Positions 15,301 through 18,300 of a stretch of DNA of 64,000 nt are shown here, in pieces. How positions within the stretch are numbered: position 1 is the stretch's first letter; every line of letters starts with the position of its first letter. This DNA comes from Lama guanicoe (taxonomy: Eukaryota): contig MU055549.1 in NCBI GenBank assembly GCA_013239625.1, positions 682,001-746,000 of the forward strand, in the 5' to 3' direction. Below the pieces are notes generated by a model. That model made no database searches, was not told where the DNA came from, and was given only the letters and a program-made list of their open reading frames with translations. The translations under genes and the position numbers were made by a program.

Positions 15301-18300
15301 AGGTGAACAGATCGAAGGAAAGACAAGCTTACGCGCACCTCAGATGGTGTGGGGGAGAAGCATTTGCTAAAATGCACGGATTCGTAATGGAAATGCTTAG
15401 CAAACTAGGAACACAAGAAGGTACCTCATCCTGACGGAGGAACCACCCAAATCTCAGTCAGGCTGCCTCCTCCCAGGGCCCCCGGAAGCATCTCTGTAAA
15501 GGTGGGGCTCAGCAAGAGCCCCACTCAGCTCCCATTCCATTTCCTGCTGAAGGCCCCAACAGAAATGAAGGGAACTCATTATTTTCACTTACCTCCACCG
15601 GAACAGTGAGGTGTAGCAAGGGGGCAGCTTGTATGTGCAGGAGGCAAAGGAGCCAGCAGCCCAGCCCCCTGTGCCTGGGCTGCTGCAGCAGACACACTGC
15701 GGAGTGCCCAGCATGGTGTGTGAATGGTCAGTTGAGTGGGCCTGGGAACCTCTGGCAACCGCTCCTTTCTTGAGGTCTCCTGGCCTGGGCCTTCCCAGCC
15801 CTGTAAGCCTTTATATTTGAGAGATTATTGCCATTTCAACTTTACAAAAATTAAAATCAACTGTTCACAATACTTCTTGTTTTTTTTAATGGAGATGAAA
15901 TTCACATAATGTAAAATTGACCATCCTAAAGTGAAGAATTTAGTGGCATTTGGAGCATTCACATGTGTACCACCACCTCTGTCTGGTTCCAAGACATCAC
16001 CACTTCTCATTACTGTCTTAACAGAGGGGAACACGAAGAAAGAGGCCAGAGGCAAAGACCACAAGAAGAGAGGCCCGGCAAAGAAGGGCCCGAAGGTAGG
16101 TGGTGGCGGCCCCGCGGGGATCCTGGGGCCCCGCTGCCAGCTCTGGGCCCGAGGCTGTCCTGGGACGCGTCCCTGAGGACCCCATCTGTCCTCGCAGGGC
16201 AGCGTGCCCCGGATCATCCCCGCAGACTGCATCACCATCGACTCGGACAACTTCAGATGTATCCTTTGACGGCTTGGCCGCCCAAACCCCTGAGCCCGTG
16301 GCCCTGTGTCTCCTTAACCAAGGCCCAGTCATGGTGGACCCCTACGAGGAGGCCCAGGGCACAGGTGAGAGCTCCCGCAACATGCCACACGCCACCCACG
16401 GCCTGGACTGGCCTGGCCCGGGCCTGGGCAGCATGGACCGGGTGCCTGGGCCTCTGTCCCACGGAGGTCACCTCCTGCTACGCTGACCGTGGGGGGCGGA
16501 CCCTCGTGTGCCCGACACCCGGCCCTCGCCGTCTGCAGCCGGGACAGGACATGAGTGAGATGAACCCCTGAGGACGGGCACCGGGGGCGCCACTGCGGCT
16601 CGAGAACAGCGTCCTTTGGCTCTTCTCTTGGGAGTTGGGCTGTAAAGCCCTCCACAAGGAGGGGAGGGGCCCTGCCTGTGAGGGGCCACGGCCCGGGGCA
16701 CCCTGCCCCGCCGAGGACGCACACCCCTCAGTGCTCCCGTATCTCATGATCCAGTTCTGGTTGCAGAAGTGCTGACTCCTGTCTCCGTAACCCGGGAAAT
16801 TTTGGAAAGATTCCGTGATACCTTCACTGCGAGATGGGCGGGCCATCTGGGAAAGAAGAACTTCCCAAGGTCCGCATCTGGGTTCCCAGGGCGCCGGCCT
16901 GCAGAGTGGGGCTGTGCCGCACCGGCCGGAGGGGGCTCCGCACACGGGCCCCTCCCCCTCCCCCAAGGCTCCCTTCTGCCCTGATCCCCTCATTCTGTCC
17001 TGTCAACGCCCTCCAGTGCCTCGGTCCTCGCAGGGCCTAGCTGAGGACCTGGGCCCCCAGGGGTGTGTGTGACCCTGCACGAGGGCCCGCGGCCAGTACA
17101 GCACAGTGTGTGTGTGTGTCCTGACTCCCAGGGGGGCCCTCCCGGAGGGGGTGGGGCTCCGGGGGCTGAGCTCCGGGAGGAGTGGGGCCGAGCCTGCAGG
17201 GGTCAGGGTGGTGAGCTCCCCCCACCCGGCAGGGACGCGGCCCCAGTGGGTGCCCTGGGCGCCTGGGCTCCGGGAGGAGTGGGGCCAAGCCTGCAGGGGG
17301 GCAGGGTGGTGAGCTCCCCCCATCCAGCAGGGACGTGGCCCCAGTGGGTGCCCTGGGGGCCTGGGCTCCAGGGCCGGCGGGCAGGCCCTTCTAGCCCCTC
17401 TCAGGTTCGCTGCCCGGGAGGCGGGGCTCATTCCCGAGCCCCGAGGTCCATTCTCAGGAGAGTCCCCCGAACCAGCCGCCCGGGGACCCCGCAGGCACTG
17501 GGAGGGTGAACGTGGCTCTGTGTCCGCGAAGAGTGCAGAGGAGGCTGCACCGCGGGTGCTGTCTGCTTGGCCAGCATGTCGGGCAGCTGTGGGGCCTGTT
17601 CCTGCCGCCTCCTGCCCACTGGGTCCTCTCTCCGGCCCCCGCAGCCAGGCCGAGTGGGAGCAGCTCCTGGGCAGCTGCCAAGGCTTCTTCTTCTACGGGA
17701 TGGAGAGCTTCCTGTCCCACGTGATGGTGGAGAGGTTGGCCGCCATGAATCTGCAAGGTGAGCCCGGGAGCCTGAGTCTGCCAGACCCACAGGCACAGGT
17801 GGGGTCCACACAGGACAGAGCAGGGCCCCTGTGTCTCCTCTCGTGTCTCATCAGGTGTCTCCCCGTCCTCTGACAAAGGCTGGGGGGCACTTTAGGAAGG
17901 CACAGGGGGCCTCTGCTCAGGACCCCTCCTCCATTTCTCTGAGAGACAGGGCCAGGGTCCGGAGCTGGGGGTCAGCCCTCCAGGGGTTGGGAAAGCTGGC
18001 CCAGCCCCCCGTCGCCTGTCCTTCTAGGTGGAATACGGGCCCCCAGTGCCGTCGTCCCGTCTGCTGGTGGCGGTGCCCCCAGCGCCCCCCACCCCCACCC
18101 CATGGGGCCTGCCCGCGCCTGACCTTCTCCTGGGGCGGTTGCTGGGCAGGTGGCCACTGTGCATAGTTGGAGGAGCCTTTTCAGGGACCCTCACAGGTGG
18201 CCCCTACCCTTGAGCGTGGCTCCACTAAGGCTGGCACCACAGGCACGTGGACACTTGTCCTGTGGTCAGGACGCCTGAACTGCCCCTGTCACCTGGCTCC

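Follow-up and report, generated by a model that had tools for sequence, protein, structure and literature searches.

Does a 70-nt intron in the gene for CFAP46 belong to the minor spliceosome, and if it does, is it more than a piece of sequence to be removed? The question is raised by positions 16259 to 16328 on the plus strand of a 64,000-nt stretch of DNA from Lama guanicoe (hereafter the window), which an initial annotation had read as a U12-type intron with a stop codon built into it. Our answer, which we hold with considerable confidence, is that RNA contigs show a GT-AG minor intron of CFAP46 spliced out at 16258/16329, that this is likely a constitutive cut of the minor spliceosome, and that human and mouse likely have the same intron as an orthologue, listed there before.

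The gene had been named correctly. One exon downstream of the intron matched camel CFAP46 with 94% identity across 62% of the query length, and the CFAP46 proteins of camel, yak, colugo and deer tiled the window from 164 to 20703. Ten exons between 11066 and 20706 formed one open frame, and the C-terminal end of the product resembled that of its relatives. The yak protein matched the CFAP46 chain 9ijj_A in the PDB, which we take to be that of mouse. In the C-terminal region of CFAP46 a weak resemblance to the Pfam family Peptidase_C50 (separase-like), below the curated cut-off, was seen in three of three proteins (P0011, P0017 and P0027). Further along the window lie presumably a homeobox exon like NKX6-2 (about 41327-41450, plus strand) and an exon like INPP5A (about 48888, minus strand), each on a motif match only. 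Within the central apparatus of the cilium, CFAP46 is part of the C1d projection (PMC11651342). The features around the intron are as follows:

16025-16095, plus strand: CFAP46 exon of 71 nt, two before the minor intron (RNA joint and open frame)
16096-16197, plus strand: major (U2-type) intron of 102 nt, phase 0 (RNA contigs and gene model)
16198-16258, plus strand: upstream exon of 61 nt, ending with the first base of a Phe codon (sequence and RNA contigs)
16259-16328, plus strand: minor intron of 70 nt, GT-AG, U12-type, phase 1 (motifs and RNA contigs)
16259-16267, plus strand: U12 5' splice site GTATCCTTT, whose positions +5 to +9 are complementary to nt 3-7 of the U11 encoded in the same genome
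16311-16318, plus strand: U12 branch site TCCTTAAC, with 10 nt from the motif to the intron end
16321-16322, plus strand: upstream AG, used in two camel gene models and absent from the RNA contigs
16329-16364, plus strand: downstream exon of 36 nt (sequence and RNA contigs)
16365-16766, plus strand: major intron of 402 nt, phase 1, likely branch A at 16746 (lariat-type contig and gene model)
16767-16869, 17645-17757, 18789-18870, 19503-19639, 19721-19801 and 20582-20706 (with the stop), plus strand: the six last coding exons (homology and RNA)

The boundaries of the last exons were taken from RNA contigs up to 17645, and from homology together with GT-AG ends beyond that point. The RNA joint that appears as 16093/16196 is equivalent to a cut at 16095/16198 and was present in three of the four runs. 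Very short introns of the major type occur twice in this GC-rich end of the gene, at 16096-16197 (102 nt) and at 19640-19720 (81 nt).

The minor intron starts with GTATCCTTTGA and ends with CCCAG. Its 5' splice site fits RTATCCTTT with no mismatch, compared with 4-6 mismatches in the other eight modelled introns of CFAP46, and its branch site fits TCCTTRAC equally well. The two adenosines of the branch site, 16316 and 16317, lie 12 and 11 nt before the 3' end of the intron, and the 10 nt separating the motif from the exon (CAAGGCCCAG) contain no pyrimidine tract. Among the nine modelled introns, located between 11225 and 20581, this is the only one with an exact match to either motif. The paired pattern GTATCCTT-N30-60-TCCTTRAC-N5-15-AG, which was itself modelled on this intron, was found once in the window and in none of 100 shuffles. 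Two further matches to GTATCCTT are present on the minus strand, at 62939 and 38570, with neither a usable branch motif nearby nor an evident upstream exon. What had initially been read from the letters, namely the 5' site, the branch site followed by 10 nt, the missing tract and the length of 70 nt, all holds, and so do the lengths given for the flanking exons (61 nt for 16198-16258 and 36 nt for 16329-16364). According to PMC3584512 the marks of the U12-type GT-AG class are the 5' site, the branch site, an optimal spacing of 11-13 nt and the lack of a pyrimidine tract. The intron at 16259-16328 is a real, textbook U12-type (minor) intron.

The same genome carries a gene for U12 (E = 1.4e-31) and one for U11 (E = 4e-23). 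The branch site forms seven Watson-Crick pairs with nt 18-24 of U12, leaving one A bulged, and positions +5 to +9 of the intron form five with nt 3-7 of U11. Both counts were the best or tied best of the nine introns, a weak separation with another intron reaching five pairs with U11 and another six with U12; the duplex energies with U11 and U12 did not single out the minor intron among the nine. From these computed pairings and the class of the intron, U11 would be expected to pair with GTATCCTTT and U12 with TCCTTAAC, so that an adenosine would bulge 11-12 nt before the intron end. The short, fixed distance from branch to end would then pick the AG at 16327-16328 rather than the AG 6 nt upstream. 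The predicted RNA fold of the 70 nt was unremarkable (-15.4 kcal/mol, z 0.08).

Evidence from RNA consisted of assembled contigs from 4 of 24 listed runs, representing four studies; they were mostly 95-99% alike to the window, as might be expected of a close relative or another stock. In contigs of all four runs 16258 was joined to 16329, so that exactly 70 nt were skipped and the cut was unambiguous. The initial annotation had staked its call on the use of this very junction. The overlap on the shorter side of the joint was 33-36 letters in three runs and 18 in X8, a run only guessed to be RNA. Joining of the exons restores a Phe codon, giving DSDNFR-F-MVDPYEE. The bin 16280-16309 in the interior of the intron was empty in contigs of all four runs. 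It might be tempting to see efficient splicing in this, but we discarded the empty interior as a sign of it, because contigs drop rare forms and give no level of retention. Short branches of low depth may be pruned during contig assembly.

Given its GT-AG ends, the intron might be thought to be cut, wholly or partly, by the major spliceosome, and some sites are indeed described as being used by both spliceosomes (PMC10853781). Perfect U12 motifs, the T at -1, the missing pyrimidine tract and the position of the branch adenosine, 11-12 nt before the intron end, argue against this, as do the scores which the MIDB supplement (PMC6717393) gives for CFAP46 in human and mouse (95-96 for the 5' sites and 89-90 for the branch sites). 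A role of the major spliceosome in this cut therefore seems very improbable. The other way in which the splicing of this intron could be more complicated concerns the AG at 16321-16322. If it were a real alternative acceptor the frame would stay open, and an additional form of the protein would carry Cys-Pro-Val in place of Phe. Exactly this is found in two camel database proteins (P0011 and P0012), which read RCPVMVDP, and alternative 3' sites are reported to occur at U12 introns (PMC3584512). However, this AG lies only 5-6 nt from the branch adenosines as against the optimum of 11-13, and the joint to 16329 was the only one seen in contigs of all four runs, bearing in mind that contigs drop rare forms. 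Moreover, further database models err at the same junction in other ways. The DP motif that follows the junction was shown by 10 of 29 proteins, the other 19 being without it, and five of these 10 were mis-modelled (P0011, P0012, P0020, P0021 and P0028, with RCPVMV, FLLNQGPVVV and LLFLLDGSTVVV). It is hard to believe that the Cys-Pro-Val form is genuine. We prefer a single minor-spliceosome cut at 16258/16329, and the RNA joint fixes the correct model of CFAP46 at a place where gene predictors often err.

The minor intron of CFAP46 is already known in human and mouse and is not new. In the MIDB supplement (PMC6717393) CFAP46 has the status 'Both', with one minor intron in each species. The human intron (chr10:132814613-132814685, ENST00000368586) is 73 nt long, has the 5' site GTATCCTTT after an exon ending in AGT, and has the branch site TTCTCCTTGACC; the mouse intron (chr7:139607115-139607189) is 75 nt long and has the same 5' site (MIDB, PMC6717393). 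The tables of PMC6717393 also group CFAP46 with testis-enriched cilium genes, the supplement of PMC9992838 marks it as isU12 TRUE and ciliary, and the 263-species orthology table of PMC11347168 includes a CFAP46 column. The MIDB listing in both species leaves no novelty for 16259-16328, a consequence that the initial annotation had accepted in advance for any intron found in a database, and the class call is unaffected by it. What our result contributes is a further mammalian species for an intron that the catalogues contain.

The window intron is likely the orthologue of the human and mouse entry, judging from its length, its phase, the context of its 5' site and the fact that each gene has just one minor intron. 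K-F is found at the junction in the CFAP46 proteins of mouse and ruminants, consistent with an exon ending in AAG T. A search for the orthologous intron by way of read-through peptides found no candidate. Models from cattle, deer and lemur contain a read-through in which LL-N/D is followed by three residues and V-V-V-D-P; at the protein level this would fit the same spacing of 10 nt after the branch site.

If the intron is retained, the reading is TGT ATC CTT TGA with the stop at 16267-16269, as had been reported. There are three in-frame stops in the retained intron, at +9, +33 and +57 (16267, 16291 and 16315), and the third of these is supplied by the TAA within the branch motif. The normal stop of CFAP46 lies 225 codons on from the junction codon. 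A stop upstream of exon junctions predicts, by the usual rule, decay of the transcript. Translation of the intron-retaining transcript would end at 16267, 225 codons short; with six junctions following that stop, degradation of the transcript would be likely. It had been suggested that the stop codon is a built-in feature of the intron, and this we could not uphold: the frame shifts anyway, three stops are present, and when the interior was shuffled 20,000 times while the two motifs were kept in place, 8% stopped at the same codon, 24% stopped before the branch site, and all stopped once the TAA of the branch motif was included. Because 70 is not divisible by three, any sequence of this length would disrupt the frame on retention. 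Mouse does not share the frameshift, since its intron of 75 nt is a multiple of three. Frameshift and early stop are described as the general outcome of minor-intron retention (PMC12956336). The TGA in the retained intron is likely a by-product rather than a switch. Since retention would truncate CFAP46, the full-length protein likely requires the minor spliceosome, a requirement which derives from the intron class and holds for any gene with such an intron.

With 73 nt, CFAP46 is the shortest of the 770 rows in the human sheet of MIDB (the whole sheet, inspected by eye). Of the mouse sheet the analysis covered 13 rows and the search hits. The other human minor introns below 100 nt in that sheet belong to MATN4 (82 nt), C19orf54 (91), SBNO1 (91), EML2 (92), DRAP1 (95), ARL16 (98), LINC01022 (98) and NOP2 (99). 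The neighbouring major introns of 102 and 81 nt are also short, which tempers the shortness of the minor one, and the minor introns of Blastocystis, with a mean of about 42 nt, are far shorter (PMC10639083). No remark naming CFAP46 as the shortest U12 intron was found in the literature searched, which included portions of PMC10810330, PMC10639083 and PMC5435141 and had most subscription journals outside its range. With lengths between 70 and 75 nt in mouse, human and camelid, the intron could be about as small as the mammalian minor spliceosome can handle, and would then be the first to fail when minor splicing drops. We think this unlikely. If it were true, the CFAP46 intron would be a natural minimal substrate for tests of the size limit, and an unusual sensitivity caused by shortness would connect minor-spliceosome disorders with defects of motile cilia, in that CFAP46 and other central-apparatus genes with minor introns would link minor-spliceosome disease to a ciliary-dyskinesia-like defect of airway or sperm. 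The human sheet of MIDB also assigns minor introns to other genes of the motile cilium, namely CFAP74, SPAG16, SPAG17, CFAP69, LRGUK, CFAP44 and DRC3. The product of CFAP74 belongs to the same C1d projection and its minor intron has 109 nt in MIDB, yet the gene is marked as isU12 FALSE in the supplement of PMC9992838.

Could so short a minor intron be spliced slowly, with the amount of full-length CFAP46 in ciliogenesis or spermiogenesis then being controlled through regulated retention? The rate-limiting model for minor introns (Patel et al. 2002, as represented in PMC3584512 and PMC6717393) provides a precedent. Minor introns that are retained tend to have a lower mean length, the human CFAP46 intron is shorter than any other listed by MIDB, and every modelled product of skipping or retention contains an early stop. 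Cfap46 is also one of a small number of genes, either carrying minor introns or of interest otherwise, that are differentially expressed in the testis of U11-null mice, the direction not being given (PMC12956336), but the same paper links expression changes to germ-cell loss and does not name Cfap46 among the mis-spliced genes in its section on splicing. A CFAP46 value of 0.35 TPM in one RNU4ATAC patient sample, as against 0.99 TPM (PMC9992838), concerns a single sample close to the detection floor. Steady-state retention in wild-type mouse, as tabulated in PMC6717393, argues against a switch. Cfap46 has no row in MIDB tables S5-S7, which hold 150 consistently retained mouse minor introns, a comparison with flanking introns and alternative splicing, despite its expression at 55.5 TPM in mouse testis; the control Pcyt2 was present in S5 and S6, and introns retained in one or two replicates are omitted from the table. 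No retention was recorded for 467 of 722 mouse minor introns. In addition, the frameshift is not shared by the 75-nt mouse intron and the fold is ordinary. Regulated retention of this kind is unlikely in our opinion, and with mouse Cfap46 outside both the consistently retained introns and the alternative-splicing tables the rate-limiting switch of the initial annotation finds no backing. Constitutive removal by the minor spliceosome remains the preferred reading.

The RNA contigs also covered the next intron downstream, which has 402 nt and a G+C content of 69%. One X7 contig runs to 16745 and continues at 16365, where this intron begins, with one T in place of the genomic A16746, and the X1 intron contig spans the identical interval 16365-16745. 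A16746 sits in CTCAT, 21 nt before the 3' end of the intron. In reads that cross a lariat the branch A is misread as T. Contigs of X4 and X8 over this intron overlap the exons by just 30 and 27 letters. We considered whether the cover might reflect a greater retention of this major intron, and rejected it: the back-joint in X7, together with ends at the same two places in X1, indicates a lariat and not retention. The 402-nt intron contig is likely of the lariat type, with A16746 as the likely branch point. Inverted reads are described as reads crossing the branch of a lariat, and A branch points are associated with unstable lariats in mammals (PMC6112733); because of the latter no stability is claimed for this lariat.

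The acceptor of the same intron is of medical interest. A patient in whom the CFAP46 variant c.7286-2A>G (p.Glu2429) is paired with a nonsense variant of the second allele had cilia without CFAP46 (PMC11651342). Mapped by peptide spacing, c.7286-2A>G would likely hit the orthologue of the acceptor 16765-16766: here a phase-1 acceptor falls in a Glu before Met, relatives have the peptide GPE-M, and this Glu is residue 2431 in the PDB chain. That the patient's cilia lack CFAP46 implies that truncation in this region is likely loss of function. Human variants in the 5' site or the branch site of the minor intron would be candidates for CFAP46-related ciliary dyskinesia, because the published truncation, which by its deduced position seems to begin about 12 codons further on, accompanies loss of CFAP46 from cilia (PMC11651342).

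How does the intron compare with known systems? With the rate-limiting minor introns of the Patel type it has the premature stop on retention in common, but it differs from them in that consistent steady-state retention is not recorded for CFAP46 in wild-type mouse. With the GT-AG subtype of U12 introns as described in PMC3584512 it shares the 5' site, the branch site, the spacing of 11-13 nt and the absence of a tract; its phase 1 agrees with the usual bias of U12-type introns towards non-zero phases, and its length places it at the short end of the subtype for mammals. The minor introns of human and mouse CFAP46 differ from it in length (73 and 75 as against 70 nt), in the branch site (TCCTTGAC as against TCCTTAAC) and in the end of the exon (AGT as against GAT). 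Nevertheless, GTATCCTTT at +1 to +9 following a T and the class of the branch motif are common to all of them, their lengths are nearly equal, and the junction peptide is consistent with the same phase-1 position.
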